NCBI GenBank assembly: GCA_963760365.1
Contig: CAVXDC010000030.1
Coordinates: 12,663-76,662, forward strand
Reading direction: 5' to 3'
Source: an uncultured Phycisphaerae bacterium
Lineage (GTDB): Bacteria; Planctomycetota; Phycisphaerae; SM23-33
Length of the DNA stretch: 64,000 nt
The notes under the pieces were generated by a model. It saw only the letters and a list, made by a program, of their open reading frames with translations. It was not told the DNA's origin and did no database searches. Below are positions 47,825 to 54,744 of this stretch, one piece after another (position 1 is the stretch's first letter; every line of letters begins with the position of its first letter). Made by a program: the position numbers and the translations under genes.

Positions 47825-49241
47825 ATGTTCGCGTTGGATGACACCATCGTGGCCATTTCTTCAGCGGCCGGTTCCGCCGCCCGGGCTATCGTCCGCCTGA
47901 GCGGGCCGGCGGCGATGGAGCTGGCCGCAGCGGTCTTTGCCCCCGCCGACCGCCTGAAACAATCTCTTCCCTTCCGCCGCCTGGAGGGATTGGTCACCGT
48001 CGAGGGCCCCGGCCTCTGTGTGCCGGCGGTGGCGTATGTCTTTCGCCCCCCGAAGCTTCACAAGGCAGGACGTGGTGGAGCTGCACGTTCCCGGCAGCGC
48101 GCACGTCGCGTCGGTCGTGCTTGCGGCGCTGACGGCGGCCGGGGCCCGCCAGGCCGGGGCGGGTGAGTTCACGGCCCGGGCCTTCTTCTCCGGCCGGATC
48201 GACTTGTCCGCGGCCCAGGCCGTGGCCGACGTGGTCAACGCCGCCGACGACGCGCAACGGCGCGCCGCCGTCACCGCCTTGGGCGGGCGCGTGCACCGCC
48301 TGTGCCAACAGGCCGCCGGCAGGCTGACCGAGGCGCTGGCCGAGGTCGAGGCGTCCGTCAACTTTGCGGATGAGGAAATCACGCTCCAAAGGCCTGCCGA
48401 GCTGGCCGGCCAATTGCGAGAACTGGCCAGCCACCTGCGCGGGGTGGCGGAGCAGGCGGGGGAGATGAGCGAATCCGCCGAGTTGCCGCGCGTGACCCTG
48501 GTTGGCAGATACAACGTGGGCAAAAGTTCTTTGCTGAACGCCCTGGGCGGCGCCGACCGGGCGATCGTCTCCGCCTTGGCGGGCACGACGCGGGACGTAC
48601 TGAGCGCAGCGATGTCCCTGACCGGCGGCGGGACGGTCCTGCTCCAGGATGCCGCGGGCTTCGGGCGGAGCGAAGACCGCTTGGCGGAGGCAGCCGGTGG
48701 GGCGGCCCGGTCGGCTATTGCAGCCTCGGACGCGATCGTGTTCGTCGTGGACGTCTCCTCGGAAAACTTTACGGAGGACGCGCGGTTGCTGGAGGAGGTG
48801 CGCTCCCTCAACCGTTGCGGCCCGCTGATCTTTGCAGCCAATAAGGCCGACTTGCCGGATTCCTCCACCCTGGCGGCCAGGTTGAAGGACTTCGAGGCTT
48901 TCTGCGGGGCCGAGCAGGTGTTTCTAGCCGTCTCGGCCCTGGTGGGCATCAACCTGGAGGCGCTCCGCCGGGCGATCGCCGATCACGTGCACCTGGAGGC
49001 CACGCGAAGCGGAGGGGCCTTGGGTCTGCACCGCCGCCAAAAGCAGAGCCTGCTGGCGGCGGCGGATTCGGCCCAAGCTGCCGCGGTGTTGCTGGCCGAG
49101 GCCGGCGATTTGGCTGACCGGGCGGAACTGGTGGCTGTGGAGCTTCGGGGGGCGCTGGAGGCCGTCGGGCAAGTCAGCGGGCAGGTGGTCAGCGAGAACG
49201 TCTTGGCCAACATCTTCGCCCGTTTCTGCGTGGGCAAATAG
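47825..49241 (+). CDS. mnmE: tRNA modification GTPase MnmE (one frameshift near 48050)
   Basis: DTIVAISSAAGSAARAIVRLSG, then SFTRQDVVELHVPGS, GEFTARAFFSGRIDLSAAQAVADV, the G-domain GRYNVGKSSLLNAL..AGTTRD, and the C-terminal FCVGK*. Confidence 0.88.
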
Positions 49242-49360
49242 CCGAACCACGCTCGGCCGCGGCCGGAGCCTATCTTCTCTTTGCTTGCCCTAAGGAGAGG
49301 CGAGATGAGAAAGGTGCTATACTCCCGTCCTTGCAGCAGGGACATATCTGGAGCGGACCG

Positions 49361-50104
49361 ATGAGTCAGCAGCGGTGGGTGATGTTGGTTGCCGTCGTCC
49401 TGGCTGTGGTGGGTGCGGTGAGTGTGGTCCTGCGTGCGTTGGGAGTGATTGGCCCCTACAGCGATGGGAGCCACCTGCCGGCCCAGGCGCAGCAGACGCT
49501 GGCGTATTTATTGATCCTGCCGGTCGGGGCGCTGCTGACGGCCGTCGTGCGGACGATGGTGGGCTTCCAGACCTTCGGCACGCTCACCCCCAGCTTGCTT
49601 GCGGCCAGTTACCTCTACTGCGACCGGACGACAGGAGCGGTGGTGTTCGTCCTGGTGATGGTGGTGGGGCTGGGCAGCAGGGCGCTGTTGGGTCGGATTC
49701 GACTCCAGATGGGCCCGCGGCTGGGCGTCATGCTGACCATCCTGGTGGCGTGCCTGGCCGCGGCGATGGTCGGGATGCATCGGCTGGGCCTTCAGCCCAC
49801 CCCGGCCGGGGCGATGATGCCCCTGGTTGTGCTGACCATGATCCTGGAACGCTTCTACGTGTCGATCGAGGAAAACGGACTGGCCGTCTCGCTGAGGTTG
49901 CTGCTAGCGACGCTGGTGGTGTCGGCGGCCTGCTGGATGCTGTTGGCCTGGCCGGCGTTGGGCCGATTGGCGCTGGCCTATCCGGAAGGCGAACTGATTG
50001 TCGCAGCCGGGTTGCTGGGGGTCGGGCGATACTCCGGCTATCGGTTGACGGAGCTGTGGCGGTTTCGCGACCTGGCCGCCGGCCGGCAGGAGCCGCGGCG
50101 ATGA
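49361..50104 (+). CDS. polytopic membrane protein, 7TM domain of the type usually fused to an inactive transglutaminase
   Basis: Intact about 247 aa with 6-7 hydrophobic spans. It is translationally coupled (ATGA overlap) to a RimK-related ATP-grasp gene, a gene pairing I recall for this family. The domain assignment is by context and composition, not alignment. Confidence 0.5.
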   Translation: MSQQRWVMLVAVVLAVVGAVSVVLRALGVIGPYSDGSHLPAQAQQTLAYLLILPVGALLTAVVRTMVGFQTFGTLTPSLLAASYLYCDRTTGAVVFVLVMVVGLGSRALLGRIRLQMGPRLGVMLTILVACLAAAMVGMHRLGLQPTPAGAMMPLVVLTMILERFYVSIEENGLAVSLRLLLATLVVSAACWMLLAWPALGRLALAYPEGELIVAAGLLGVGRYSGYRLTELWRFRDLAAGRQEPRR

Positions 50105-51009
50105 GGCTTTTTTCCACATGCCAACGTTTTCTGCCCGCCTGGCCGGGGCGATTGCGGCGGGCGGGCGTGCTGGGGTTGAACGGTCGGAACCTGAACGTCC
50201 TGACGGCCTGGAACCCCAAGCCGCTCTATCGCCTGGCCGATGACAAGCTGGCCACCAAGGAGCTGTGCGCCCAGTACGGCATCGCGGTGCCGCAAACATT
50301 TGCCGTGGTGGACCATCCCGTCCAGGTCCGCCGGCTGGACCGCCTGGTGGGGTCGCATTCGGAGTTCATCGTTAAGCCCGTTCGCGGCGCCGGCGGTCGC
50401 GGCGTGGTGCTCATTACCGGGCGGAGCGACAGAAGTTTTATGACGGTGGGGGGGACGATGTCATCCGCCGACCTTCGATACCACCTGCTGGAGATCCTGG
50501 GTGGGACGTACTCTCTGGGCGGCAGGGCCGACCGGGCGATGATTGAGCAGCGGATTGCCAGCCACCCGGCCCTGGCGGCCTGGTCGGCCGGCGGGACGCC
50601 GGATGTGCGGATCGTCCTGTTCCGCGGGGCGCCGATCATGGCCATGCTCCGCCTGCCGACGTCGCGCTCCGCCGGCAGGGCCAACCTCCACCAGGGCGCC
50701 CTGGGCGTGGGGTTGGACCTGCGGACCGGCTCGGCCATCGCGGCTGTGTGCGAGGGAAAGACCGTGGACCGCCACGTGGATAGCGGTTTGTCCATCGGCG
50801 ACATCGCCGTGCCCGCCTGGCCGGAGATCCTGGCCGTTGCGAGGAGGCTGGCGGCCGTCATCGGCTTGGGATACCTTGGCGTGGATATCGTCCTGGACGA
50901 CCGCGCCAGGCCCGTGGTGCTGGAGGCCAATGGCCGGCCTGGCCTGACCATCCAAATCGCCAACCGCTGCGGGCTGCTGAAAAAGATCGACGAAATGGAT
51001 ACTCGTTGA
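50101..51009 (+). CDS. alpha-L-glutamate ligase-related ATP-grasp protein (RimK-related, TIGR02291-like)
   Basis: Intact 302 aa. The N-terminus GVLGLNGRNLNVLTAWNPKPLYRLADDKLATKELC matches the family signature (GxLGMNxRN..YPLVDDKLxTK). The ATP-grasp core is FIVKPVRGAGGRGV and GVDIVLDDRARPVVLEANGRPGL. Confidence 0.7.
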   Translation: MRLFSTCQRFLPAWPGRLRRAGVLGLNGRNLNVLTAWNPKPLYRLADDKLATKELCAQYGIAVPQTFAVVDHPVQVRRLDRLVGSHSEFIVKPVRGAGGRGVVLITGRSDRSFMTVGGTMSSADLRYHLLEILGGTYSLGGRADRAMIEQRIASHPALAAWSAGGTPDVRIVLFRGAPIMAMLRLPTSRSAGRANLHQGALGVGLDLRTGSAIAAVCEGKTVDRHVDSGLSIGDIAVPAWPEILAVARRLAAVIGLGYLGVDIVLDDRARPVVLEANGRPGLTIQIANRCGLLKKIDEMDTR

Positions 51010-51080: not shown

Positions 51081-51929
51081 ATGTCTCTTCTAGCGTGGTC
51101 ACTGATTCCTCCGGACGTGCAGCACGTCGCGGTGTTTTTGCTGCTGGGGGGCGTCTCGGCCATGCTGGTCAGTGCCGCCAAGGCGGGTTTCGGTGGGACG
51201 ATCGGCGTGCTGAGCTTTCCCATCATGGTGTACGCCTACAGCGGCAACGCGATGCTGGCCACGGGCACCACGCTGCCGCTGCTGATCGCCACCGACGTGG
51301 TGGCCCTGGTGAGTTGGTGGGGCAGGTGGAACCGCCGGACGGTGTGGATGATACTGCCGGGGGCGATCGCGGGCATCGCCGTCGGAGCCTTGGTGCTGTG
51401 GGGGTTGCGACGGATGGGCGACCCGGTGCAATCCGCCAAGGCCGGCAGCAGCGCCAACGCCGCGCTGATGCTGATGGTGGGCGTAATCTCCGTGGGCTTC
51501 GTGGTTCTCCAGACCGTCAACGCCCTTTTCTACCGGCCTGGGGCGTTCCGGCCCGTGCCCTGGCAGGGGACGGCCGTGGGGGCGGCCGCGGGCGTCACCA
51601 GCACCCTGGCCCACGCCGCAGGCCCCGTGGCCACCATGTACCTGCTGCCCCAGCAGATGCCCAAGGGCACCTACGTGGCCACCACGGTGCTGTTCTTTGC
51701 CGTCGTCAACTTGGTCAAGCTCATCCCCTACGTGGCGCTGGGGCTGATCAACACCACCACGCTGGGGGCGGGGGTCGTGCTGCTGCCGGCCGTCGTCCTG
51801 GGGGCGGTCCTGGGACTGAAGCTGCACGGCCGGGTCCCGCAGCGCCAGTTCACGGCCGTGGTCTACGTCCTGCTGGCCTTGACGGGGGCGCACATGATTT
51901 ATCAGGGACTGGGTGGGTTGCTGAGATAG
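51081..51929 (+). CDS. TauE/SafE (TSUP) family anion exporter
   Basis: Intact 282 aa with about 8 TM segments and the duplicated GxGGG-like motif (KAGFGGTIGVL, AAGVTSTLAHAAGP). Confidence 0.65.
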   Translation: MSLLAWSLIPPDVQHVAVFLLLGGVSAMLVSAAKAGFGGTIGVLSFPIMVYAYSGNAMLATGTTLPLLIATDVVALVSWWGRWNRRTVWMILPGAIAGIAVGALVLWGLRRMGDPVQSAKAGSSANAALMLMVGVISVGFVVLQTVNALFYRPGAFRPVPWQGTAVGAAAGVTSTLAHAAGPVATMYLLPQQMPKGTYVATTVLFFAVVNLVKLIPYVALGLINTTTLGAGVVLLPAVVLGAVLGLKLHGRVPQRQFTAVVYVLLALTGAHMIYQGLGGLLR

Positions 51930-52041: not shown

Positions 52042-54744
52042 TTACTTTCTGCGTTTCCTGGTGGGCTTGCGTGTGGTTTTTTTCGCGGCTCTCTTTGCCG
52101 CCTTTTTGGCCGGGTAGCGGATGGCGGCCTGGGCGGCGGCCAGGCGCGCGACCGGCACGCGGTAGGGGGAGCAGCTCACGTAGTCCAGGCCCACCTGATG
52201 GCAGAATTCCACGCTGGCGGGGTCCCCGCCGTGCTCGCCGCAGATGCCTAGCACAAGGTTCGGCCGGGTCTTTCGGCCCTTTTCCACGGCGATGCGGATC
52301 ATCTGTCCCACGCCGACGCGGTCCAGCGTCTGGAACGGGTCGTAATCGTAGATGCCCATCTCCACGTAATTCTTGAGGAACCGGCCGGCGTCGTCGCGGC
52401 TGAAGCCGCAGCCCATCTGCGTCAGGTCGTTGGTGCCGAAGCTGAAGAACTCCGCCTCGGTGGCGATCTCGTCGGCCGTCAGCGCGCCGCGCGGCACCTC
52501 GATCATCGTGCCGATCTGGTAGTGGAACGGCAGCTTCCGGACGCCTTTTTCGGCCTTGAGCTGCTCCAGAACCTCCAGGACCACCTTCTTCTGGTGGGCC
52601 AGCTCCTTCACGTTGCCCACCAGCGGGATCATGATCTTCGGGCTGGCAGCCCTTGACCGCCAGGGCGGCCTCGAAGACCGCGCGGGCCTGCATGGCGGTG
52701 ATCTCCGGATACGTGATGCCCAGCCGGCAGCCGCGCAGGCCCAGCATCGGGTTGAACTCGTGCAGCGACTCCACCTTGGCCTTGATCTTCTCCACCGGCA
52801 CGCCCATGGCCGTGGCCATCTCCTGCTGGCCCGGCGTCGTCGTGCGGTAGGAACTCGTGCAGCGGCGGGTCGAGGAAGCGGATGATGGCCGGCCGCCCGG
52901 CCAGGGCCTGGAAGATGCCGATGAAGTCCTGTCGCTGGAGCGGCAGCAGCTTTTCCAGCGCCTTGCGGCGGCCCTCGGCGTCCTCGGCCAGGATCATCTC
53001 GCGCATCGGGACGATGCGGTCGCCTTCGAAGAACATGTGCTCCGTGCGGCACAGGCCGATGCCCTCGGCCCCGAACCGCACCGCCACCTTGGCGTCGTGC
53101 GGCGTGTCGGCGTTGGCGCGGACGCCCAGGCGGCGGTACTTGTCGGCCAGCTTCATGATCACCCCGAACGGCCCAGTGAGCGCCGGTTCGACGGTGGGGA
53201 TTTTCCCGGCGTACACGGCCCCGATCGAGCCGTTGAGGCTGATCCAGTCGCCTTCTTTCAGCGTGGTGCCGCCGGCGGTGAGGGTCTTGGCTTTGTAGTC
53301 GATGACCGCGTCGCCCGCCCCGGCCACGCAGCACTTGCCCATGCCGCGGGCGACGACGGCCGCGTGGCTGGTCATGCCGCCCCGGCTGGTGAGGATGCCC
53401 TTGGCCACGTTCATGCCGCCGATGTCCTCGGGGCTGGTCTCGATGCGAACGAGGATGACGGCCCGGTTCATCTCCCCCCACCGCTCGGCGTCCTCGGCGC
53501 AGAAGACAATCTGACCCGTCGCCGCCCCGGGACTGGCGGGCAGGCCGGAGCAGATTTTCGGCGCCGCCTCTTCGGCCTTGGGATCGAAGGTGGGGTGCAG
53601 GAGTTGGTCGATCGCCTTGGGTTCCACGCGCATCACGGCCTGCTGCTCGCTGATGAGGCCTTCCTTGACCATGTCCACGGCGACCTTGACTGCCGCGGCG
53701 GCGGTCCGCTTGCCGTTGCGGGTCTGGAGCATGTAGAGCTTCCGCCGCTCGATGGTGAACTCGACGTCCTGCATGTCGCGGTAGTGCGTCTCGAGGATCC
53801 GGCGGATCTCCAGGAGCTGCCTGTAGGAGGTCCGGTCGCGCTGGGCCAGCTCGTCGATGGGCAGCGGTGTGCGGATGCCGGCTACGACGTCCTCGCCCTG
53901 GGCGTTCATCAGGAACTCTCCGTAGAACTTGTTCTCGCCGGTGGAAGGGTTGCGGGTGAAGGCCACGCCCGTGCCGCTGTCGTCGCCCAGATTGCCGAAA
54001 ACCATCGTCTGGACGTTGACGGCCGTGCCCAAAAGACCGCGGATGTCGTTGAGCTGGCGGTACTTGATCGCGCGGGGGTTGTTCCAGCTTCCGAGGACCG
54101 CGTCGATCGAGGCGTCCAGCTGCGCCCGGGCGTCCTGGGGAAAACTCTTGCCGGCGTGCTGGTATGACCTTCTCGTACGCGGCCACTACGTCCTTGAGGC
54201 CCTCGACGTCCAGTTCGGTGTCCAGCCTGGCCCCGCGGCGATCCTTGACGGTCTGGAGGGCGTGCTCGAAGTCGTCGTGCTCGATGCCCAGCACCACGTC
54301 GCCGAACATTTGCATGAAGCGGCGGTAGGCGTCCCAGGCGAACCGCTCGTTGCCGGTCAGGCGGGTGAGGGCTTGGAGGGTCTGATTGTTCAGCCCCAGG
54401 TTCAGCACGGTGTCCATCATGCCGGGCATGGAGGCGGCCGCCCCGCTGCGGACCGAGACCAGCAAAGGATTGGACCCGTGGCCGAAGGTCTTGCCGGTGA
54501 GCTTCTCCAGCCTCTGGATGTTGGCGGTGACTTCCTCCGCCAGGCCCCGCGGCCACTGGCGATTGAGCTTGTAGAACAGATCGCACGCCACGGTGGTGAT
54601 GGTGAAGCCTGGGGGGACGGGCAGGCCCAGGGAGCTCATCTCCGCGAGGTTAGCGCCCTTGCCTCCCAGCAAGGCCTTCATGGCAGCCTTGCCCTCGGCC
54701 TTGCCGCCGCCGAAGAAATACACGTACTTAGTCTTCTTGGCCAT
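52042..54744 (-). CDS. ppdK: pyruvate, phosphate dikinase with a basic C-terminal tail (heavily frameshifted as assembled)
   Basis: The N-terminus is [22 protein letters not shown]. The middle is [30 protein letters not shown] (phospho-His loop) and GLCRTEHMF. The C-terminus is [12 protein letters not shown] and [10 protein letters not shown]. These lie in ORFs 52042-54744, 52629-54032 and 52016-52819, with at least 4 frame changes. It ends [22 protein letters not shown]. Confidence 0.9.

Follow-up and report, generated by a model that had tools for sequence, protein, structure and literature searches.

A candidate reduced RloB-RloC module in a Phycisphaerae bacterium: a short seven-helix membrane protein coupled to an ATP-grasp ligase

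The locus described here raises the question of what a short seven-transmembrane (7TM) protein and an ATP-grasp ligase, encoded by two overlapping genes of an uncultured Phycisphaerae bacterium, form together, and to which known system they belong. The genes lie in a stretch of 64,000 nucleotides, which is hereafter called the window. An earlier sequence-only reading had placed two open reading frames (ORFs) with an ATGA overlap on the plus strand, and the sequence confirms both the frames and the overlap, as follows.

49361 to 50104, plus strand: gene A, encoding P0001 (mini-RloB), from the ATG at 49361 to the TGA at 50104, 247 amino acids
50101 to 51009, plus strand: gene B, encoding P0002 (RloC-like ATP-grasp ligase), from the ATG at 50101 to the TGA at 51009, 302 amino acids
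50101 to 50104, plus strand: ATGA, the overlap of the gene A stop and the gene B start, by direct reading of the sequence

The pair is a transglutaminase-less and protease-less variant of a system that was named in 2025. The reading that we prefer, in which we place roughly even confidence, is that it represents a reduced RloB-RloC module, where the 7TM core and the ATP-grasp ligase are kept, the periplasmic transglutaminase-like domain has been lost and RloA is missing.

The sequence-only reading had regarded the function of this ligase family as unknown. The family is no longer anonymous, as the rloABC operon of Pseudomonas aeruginosa was named and genetically characterised in 2025 (Lormand et al., mBio, PMC12239564); the claim stands for the chemistry, as the product of RloC and the role of RloB were not known to those authors. 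In P. aeruginosa, RloA is a secreted retropepsin-like protease that cuts runs of at least eight glutamates in vitro, RloB (PA14_41710) is located in the inner membrane and combines seven helices with an inactive transglutaminase domain on the periplasmic side, and RloC (PA14_41730) is a cytoplasmic ATP-grasp protein that is 24% identical to RimK (PMC12239564). Hypo-osmotic medium kills a triple rloA mutant, which also shows defects related to biofilm, antibiotics and shape, and the deletion of rloB or rloC suppresses these defects; according to the same work, 96% of the RloB matches are proteobacterial (PMC12239564). The RloB-RloC family is described by the NCBIfam models NF052267 and TIGR02291 and by the Pfam models PF14400, PF14402 and PF14397.

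P0001 matches PF14402 (7TM_transglut) at residues 38-238 with a score of 150.7 bits (E 6.6e-44, cut-off 25), covering positions 47-247 of the 248 in the profile, and PF14402 is the sole domain family that it matches. On the RloB model NF052267, the match is confined to positions 305-505 of 508 and reaches 135.9 bits against a cut-off of 900, which indicates that the transglutaminase part is absent; profile searches with PF14400 and PF01841 gave no match. The protein is composed of an N-terminal anchor helix (approximately residues 3-26, hydropathy 3.0), a linker of about 15 residues and the 7TM core. Alignment to the full-length proteins of genomes G019 and G011 shows that about 280 residues between the anchor helix and the core are absent. 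As judged from the sequence, the N-terminal helix is a putative transmembrane anchor and the C-terminus is predicted to be cytoplasmic, because the tail is rich in arginine and because related fusion proteins continue from this end into the cytoplasmic ligase.

The AlphaFold2 model of P0001 is all-helical, with a predicted local distance difference test (pLDDT) score of 92 and a predicted template modelling (pTM) score of 0.83, and no structural neighbour of the 7TM model was found in the PDB (best Foldseek E 0.38, TM-score of at most 0.36). Over 152 7TM domains, seven arginines are conserved in at least 86% (R64, R107, R120, R164, R223, R228 and R234), and four glutamates (E163, E171, E209 and E231) are conserved across the same diverse set; all eleven are present in P0001. 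The conserved residues of the 7TM core are arginine, glycine and proline, located within the helices or at their ends, and a conserved GxxTFGTFxP stretch is unwound. Judging by the helix boundaries of the model and the positive-inside rule, the cytoplasmic face would hold most of the conserved arginines.

P0002 matches PF14397 (ATPgrasp_ST) with 237.3 bits (cut-off 31.4, E 2.5e-70) and TIGR02291, the model for the alpha-L-glutamate ligase-like protein, with 312.8 bits (E 2.1e-93), which is 1.4 bits short of the cut-off of 314.2. The scores for characterised ligases are far below their thresholds: 53.5 bits versus 143.4 for RimK proper (TIGR00768), with no match to PF18030 (RimK_N), and 30.6 versus 850, 36.8 versus 350 and 25.6 versus 275.6 bits for CphA, MptN and LysX, respectively; the GshB model also scores far under its threshold. 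The sequence-only reading had assigned the ligase to the alpha-L-glutamate-ligase-like family, apart from RimK, CphA and MptN, and had described a PF14402-type partner without a transglutaminase domain; the profile searches bear out all of these points. A search of the genome contigs for related loci with the ligase gave one distant Haliangium locus only.

The invariant columns of the ligase were defined from 22 natural 7TM-ligase fusions, and 40 such columns fall within P0002. The residue is identical in 37 of the 40, including K92, E149, D168, R170, R184, N195, D262, N277 and R279, and the remaining three are changed from P to V226, from T to S228 and from R to K295. The motifs shared with the 22 fusions are the G98-G99-x-G101 loop, N195-x-H197-x-G199 and N277-x-R279-P-G, and the conserved positions align with the ATP, Mg and NLHxG motifs of RimK. 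In the model of a fusion protein, P0210, the ATP-grasp part is closest to RimK (5zct, E 1.4e-7), followed by ArgX/LysX, CphA, DcsG, PsnB and Ddl, and a sequence search gave no solved RloC homologue nearer than CphA or RimK (E of about 1e-5). P0002 is apparently an active ligase, since it retains the invariant residues and, among solved structures, its fold is nearest to that of RimK.

RimK, the poly-alpha-L-glutamate synthetase or ribosomal protein S6 glutamate ligase, shares with P0002 the ATP-grasp fold (nearest solved structures 5zct and 7qyr) and the Lys, Gly-loop, NLHxG and ExN motifs. When it is accompanied by RimB it also resembles the full Rlo systems, in which the ligase is paired with a PF05618 retropepsin. 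However, RimK is soluble and tetrameric, carries an N-terminal acceptor-binding domain and has no membrane partner. In P0002, about 40 residues, with the invariant R29, N30 and N38, take the place of the acceptor-binding N-domain of about 90 residues in RimK. Residues 38-46 of P0002 align to positions 77-97 of the RimK-family models, where residue 38 corresponds to position 77, and the N-terminal region of P0002 is therefore short, with no RimK-type N-domain.

Compared with RloB-RloC of P. aeruginosa, the window pair has a homologous 7TM core (PF14402) and a homologous ATP-grasp ligase (1.4 bits below the TIGR02291 cut-off), the same tightly coupled order of the 7TM gene and then the ligase gene, and the same predicted topology, in which an N-terminal anchor helix is present and the C-terminus and the ligase would be cytoplasmic. 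On the other hand, it has no periplasmic inactive transglutaminase domain of about 280 residues, and no RloA retropepsin was found in the locus or in the metagenome-assembled genome (MAG), which is 71% complete. The pair also belongs to a different phylum, the Planctomycetota (Phycisphaerae), whereas the genetic evidence for a role in hypo-osmotic tolerance and envelope integrity is from P. aeruginosa only (PMC12239564).

The coupling of the two genes is conserved. The same 4-nt overlap of the 7TM and ligase genes occurs in L023, L025 and G030, and the ligase gene directly follows the 7TM gene in every genome examined. In addition, 7TM and ATP-grasp domains are fused in single chains of 520-760 amino acids in Euryarchaeota, Halorubrum and Oscillatoria. 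These fusions (P0210 of a Euryarchaeota MAG, 564 amino acids; P0088 of Oscillatoria sp., 680 amino acids; P0087) consist of the same two parts as the window pair, with no transglutaminase domain, and the 7TM end abuts the ligase start as at the ATGA junction; they differ in forming one polypeptide, and their 7TM part is only 20-38% identical. We know of no characterisation or printed description of them. Some are compact and have no linker: in P0210, the equivalent of residue 244 of P0001 is followed directly by the equivalent of residue 9 of P0002, so that, from the alignment, this junction appears to correspond closely to the ATGA junction read through. The AlphaFold2 model of P0210, built from a 22-sequence alignment (pLDDT 84, pTM 0.79), is compatible with a defined packing of the 7TM and ligase domains. 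A physical complex of the two proteins, which the sequence-only reading had proposed from the overlap, is thus supported by the conserved adjacency and the many natural fusions.

Other domain arrangements were also observed. Fusions of the transglutaminase domain, the 7TM core and the ATP-grasp domain exist at about 800-880 amino acids; retropepsin-ligase fusions (PF05618 and PF14397; P0204 and P0214-P0269) have about 430-480 amino acids and are mostly from Patescibacteria; and TPR and ATP-grasp fusions with long TPR arrays (P0203 and P0228-P0259) have about 1000 amino acids. Depending on the lineage, the RloC-type ligase is fused to the 7TM core, to the transglutaminase-7TM protein or to the protease domain. 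In a Pirellulales MAG (GCA_016935315.1; L026, 6001-7863), a protein of 620 amino acids has the transglutaminase domain and the 7TM core, and of the ATP-grasp domain it has just the beginning; the next gene encodes a CYTH-domain protein. Either a truncated fusion or a fault of gene calling may explain this protein. On a metagenome contig (L025, 3694-9871), a full-length RloB-RloC pair with the 4-nt overlap stands beside a convergent gene for a true RimK (Rimk_N and RimK), and a gene of the AstE/AspA deacylase family is located two genes upstream of this locus.

The C-terminal ends bear on one alternative, in which the ligase extends the cytoplasmic C-terminal tail of the 7TM protein itself as an add-and-trim "tail code". 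RimK does extend a C-terminal Glu-Glu. However, P0001 ends in GRQEPRR and its congeners end in AQEPPR and AEGPRR, none of which is an acidic tail, and in many relatives this C-terminus is fused to the ligase and hence is not free. We consider this alternative hardly credible.

The distribution of the long and short forms was analysed among the relatives. The window genome, G000, is a 2.43-Mb MAG, and its congener G002 is 93% complete. Besides the window genome, PF14402 is present in six of 40 relatives, and the ligase gene directly follows in each. One member of the same GTDB family, G011, has a full rloABC set (L012, 5405-8486), consisting of an RloB of 524 amino acids with a transglutaminase-like domain devoid of Cys and His, RloC, and an RloA of 178 amino acids (PF05618) with a signal- or lipoprotein-like N-terminus; this rloA is convergent to rloB-rloC, and not upstream as in Pseudomonas. 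Another member, G019, has an RloB of 525 amino acids and RloC, and no PF05618. Short 7TM proteins of 242-255 amino acids are found in the window genus (G000, G001 and G002) and in genus g26 of a neighbouring family (G027 and G030), and they keep the anchor helix and the 7TM core, with about 280 residues between them missing. As full rloABC and full-length RloB-RloC occur in genomes of the same family, the window pair looks like a reduced form. Only 119 bp separate mnmE and gene A, which indicates that the domain was deleted outright and did not decay in place.

In the tree of 152 7TM domains, the proteins of the window, G001, G002, G027 and G030 group with three metagenome proteins in a single starred clade (Shimodaira-Hasegawa-like approximate likelihood ratio test, SH-aLRT, 98), which is free of long forms and covers two GTDB families. 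Within this order, the topology fits one event in which the transglutaminase domain was lost. Across all 152 domains, the short or long character requires 14 changes, and at least four of the changes are forced by starred branches; the loss of the domain is therefore recurrent. Approximately 25 of the best 150 representatives of clusters at 50% identity are complete short forms with the anchor helix. The sequence-only reading had presented the reduced form as a peculiarity of one distant phylum, which does not hold, as transglutaminase-less 7TM partners occur in many lineages. Stand-alone 7TM forms are already implied by the Pfam description, which uses the words "usually fused". What is new here is the within-family series from rloABC through RloB-RloC to the mini pair, the tree with one loss in this lineage and repeated losses in others, the rejection of a tie between the loss of the domain and that of the protease, the wide range of fusions, two models of high confidence and the conserved set of arginines.

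No protease gene adjoins the window pair, as the sequence-only reading had noted, and PF05618, PF13650 and PF13975 were not found elsewhere in G000 or in the more complete G002. PF05618 was likewise not found in G001, G027 and G030; G001 has a tandem Asp_protease_2 protein elsewhere in the genome, which is unrelated. Among 401 genomes of the phylum, PF14402 is present in 18, and seven of the 17 other than the window genome also have PF05618. In six of these seven, the operons are proteobacteria-like, with PF14402 scores above 300 bits (G159, G176, G268, G280, G322 and G389, which comprise one planctomycete genus with four genomes, one of them closed, and two others; G280 has two rloABC copies). 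The planctomycete-type loci score 130-190 bits on PF14402, and the difference suggests that the operons above 300 bits were acquired from Proteobacteria.

The possibility that the loss of the transglutaminase domain is tied to the loss of RloA was rejected, as the planctomycete-type full-length RloB loci of G019, G046, G151, G202 and G342 are also without PF05618. The absence of the protease is usual among planctomycete-type RloB-RloC loci and is not linked to the domain loss; the two-gene form is accordingly not the exception for which the sequence-only reading took it. Directly 5' of the full-length RloB-RloC genes in G019 (L009, 4597-6363) and G151 (L017, 2457-4079), which belong to different families and both have no PF05618, a gene for a secreted-looking M28 metallopeptidase with a PA domain was observed. 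This peptidase may be a non-homologous stand-in for the trimming protease RloA; its gene is not beside the window pair.

With regard to the mechanism, the results suggest that the 7TM core and the ligase are the working core of the rlo system. In the reduced RloB-RloC module, and with the same roughly even confidence, the cytoplasmic ligase would dock where the 7TM protein exposes its arginine-rich face to the cytoplasm and use ATP to build an anionic peptide, most likely of alpha-linked glutamate. The 7TM protein would supply the acceptor site, and the peptide would be handed to it or threaded through it into the envelope, where the product in this lineage would be left untrimmed by a retropepsin. 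The alpha-glutamyl product is proposed because RimK is the nearest enzyme and because of the specificity of RloA and the suppression genetics in Pseudomonas. The envelope destination follows from P. aeruginosa, where RloA is secreted and the defects of the triple rloA mutant are suppressed by the deletion of rloB or rloC (PMC12239564).

In a bolder version, which we put forward tentatively and hold to be doubtful, the 7TM core and the RloC-type ligase would on their own suffice as a synthase-translocase of two proteins, of a kind not recognised before. The ligase, having no acceptor domain, would use a membrane protein of unsolved fold as its acceptor site and conduit, thereby placing a non-ribosomal alpha-poly-glutamate or a similar polyanion in the envelope. 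A functional analogy is given by PgsBCA/CapBCA, the poly-gamma-glutamate synthetase of Bacillus, in which an ATP-dependent amide ligase and small membrane proteins make and export an anionic poly-amino acid. These proteins are unrelated to the pair, PgsB has a Mur-ligase-like fold and the linkage is gamma, and no homology is claimed.

Several points weigh against the proposed mechanism. The product of the RloC-type enzymes is a putative one, with the glutamate substrate deduced from RimK, a distant enzyme (about 20% identity), and from the specificity of RloA in another phylum. The 7TM protein is at most a candidate conduit, as the fold has no solved relative in the Foldseek search described above, and the docking geometry and the arginine placement depend on pTM, hydropathy and the positive-inside rule. 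In this genome, neither RloA nor a periplasmic domain was found that would give an independent sign of the product leaving the cytoplasm, and, with the MAG 71% complete, it is chiefly the congener G002 on which this absence of a protease depends.

The lack of an independent sign of export is relevant to an alternative in which the 7TM protein serves as an anchor in the membrane, a sensor or a regulator, responding for example to the envelope or osmotic state, and not a conduit. The product would then be cytoplasmic, namely a free acidic peptide, an osmolyte store or a protein glutamyl tail as for RimK and S6. The short form essentially has no extracytoplasmic domain, no periplasmic partner was found in the genome, RimK and LysX/ArgX, which are the closest enzymes of known function, act at the C-termini of cytoplasmic proteins, and the Rlo phenotypes are osmotic, all of which would agree with such a role. 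However, the linked protease in Pseudomonas is secreted, which implies that an RloBC-dependent substrate or effect reaches the periplasm; the conserved Arg, Gly and Pro residues and the unwound GxxTFGTFxP fit a path for a substrate better than they fit a passive anchor; and the ligase is without the N-domain with which RimK binds its protein acceptor. We regard this alternative as possible, at about one chance in four.

The missing N-domain is also consistent with an acceptor supplied by the membrane partner, and this would suit a different chemistry, in which the ligase forms an amide between an amino acid and a membrane-bound acceptor that is not a peptide, for example a cell-wall precursor or a lipid-linked sugar acid, and the 7TM protein presents or flips this acceptor. 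The Pfam name of PF14397, "sugar-transfer associated ATP-grasp", points in this direction, as do the cell-shape and beta-lactam phenotypes of Rlo mutants, for which a peptidoglycan link was considered by the authors (PMC12239564), and the over-production of membrane vesicles by a Shewanella RloB mutant (PMC12096838). Nevertheless, the neighbourhoods in the window, L023, L024 and L025 contain no linked gene for a glycosyltransferase or an envelope glycan, the partner protease of the full systems is specific for poly-Glu, and the protease-ligase fusions point to a peptide product. A non-peptide acceptor is thus considered unlikely.

The surroundings of the pair were analysed for further components and for the integrity of the assembly. 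Other features at the locus are as follows.

49350 to 49353, plus strand: GGAG, Shine-Dalgarno-like, 7 nt 5' of the gene A ATG, a consensus match only
50089 to 50092, plus strand: GGAG, Shine-Dalgarno-like, inside gene A and 8 nt 5' of the gene B ATG, a consensus match only
51081 to 51929, plus strand: gene for a TauE/SafE-family membrane protein (PF01925, 83.3 bits)

A TTG at 49331 was rejected as the start of gene A, where it would add 10 residues, as the congener proteins begin at the ATG position (P0270: MSQPRW...). The G+C content of the window is about 67% and long spurious ORFs are common there; the 544-amino-acid ORF at 49375-51009 in another frame was dismissed as such an artefact, like the other long overlapping ORFs. 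A scan for promoters and terminators around the pair gave nothing above the shuffled expectation. The pair is flanked by mnmE upstream and by the TauE-family gene and then ppdK downstream. The TauE gene is found 3' of the pair in G001, G002 and L023 and not in G027, G030 and L024; it was not accepted as a third component, as it is conserved within the genus only and its membership in the module is not shown.

Both mnmE and ppdK are broken in this assembly. mnmE (47825-49241, plus strand) is split by a frameshift, where TrmE_N positions 1-38 lie in the ORF 47825-48166 and the remainder, from TrmE_N positions 67-117 onward, lies in the ORF 48018-49241 in a different frame; the orthologue on L023, a related 1.3-Mb contig, is intact with 477 amino acids. 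The mnmE frameshift is either an assembly indel or a sign of a recent pseudogene. ppdK, encoding pyruvate phosphate dikinase (52042-54744, minus strand), spans three frames, with frameshifts located by tblastn near 54168, 52830 and 52640, and its orthologue in L023 is intact with 895 amino acids. Taken together, the frameshifts in the two genes suggest that this region was assembled with indel errors. In G030, the RloC-like gene (L010, 5584-6475) was recovered as two tblastn pieces with an ORF end that looks out of frame, and is probably frameshifted near codon 230.

The Rlo-like pair is intact although its neighbours carry frameshifts, which would fit selection on the pair. This is of importance for the last alternative, that the pair is a decaying and functionless remnant of an rloABC operon. 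The loss of a domain and of a partner gene, the frameshifts in the neighbouring genes and the apparent frameshift near the C-terminus of the G030 ligase would be expected of a remnant. However, both ORFs are intact, the family-invariant charged residues of the 7TM protein are all kept together with 37 of the 40 ligase columns, and several congeners and metagenome contigs encode proteins of this short architecture that are 71-76% identical. Furthermore, the short-form clade covers two GTDB families, and independent lineages converged on the same two-part core, fusions included. Decay is therefore judged very improbable.

The pair, read as a reduced RloB-RloC module, extends the rlo system well beyond the Proteobacteria. 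The system matters in the bacteria where it has been studied: in Pseudomonas, rloABC has effects on biofilm formation, cell shape, osmotic tolerance and the sensitivity to antibiotics, and in Vibrio the VxrAB envelope-stress system induces it strongly. As a natural minimal version, with no periplasmic domain and no protease and with the invariant residues kept, the pair narrows the question of the mechanism to the 7TM core and the ligase, and the one-chain fusions are ready-made constructs for biochemistry and cryo-electron microscopy. Its value is that it provides a tool for studying the mechanism and limits what this can be, and not that it is a new kind of system. If the synthase-translocase proposal were true, the transglutaminase-like domain and the retropepsin of Pseudomonas would be optional periplasmic accessories for holding and trimming the polymer, and natural minimal systems for proving it would be available in the Phycisphaerae pair and in the fusions from archaea and cyanobacteria.

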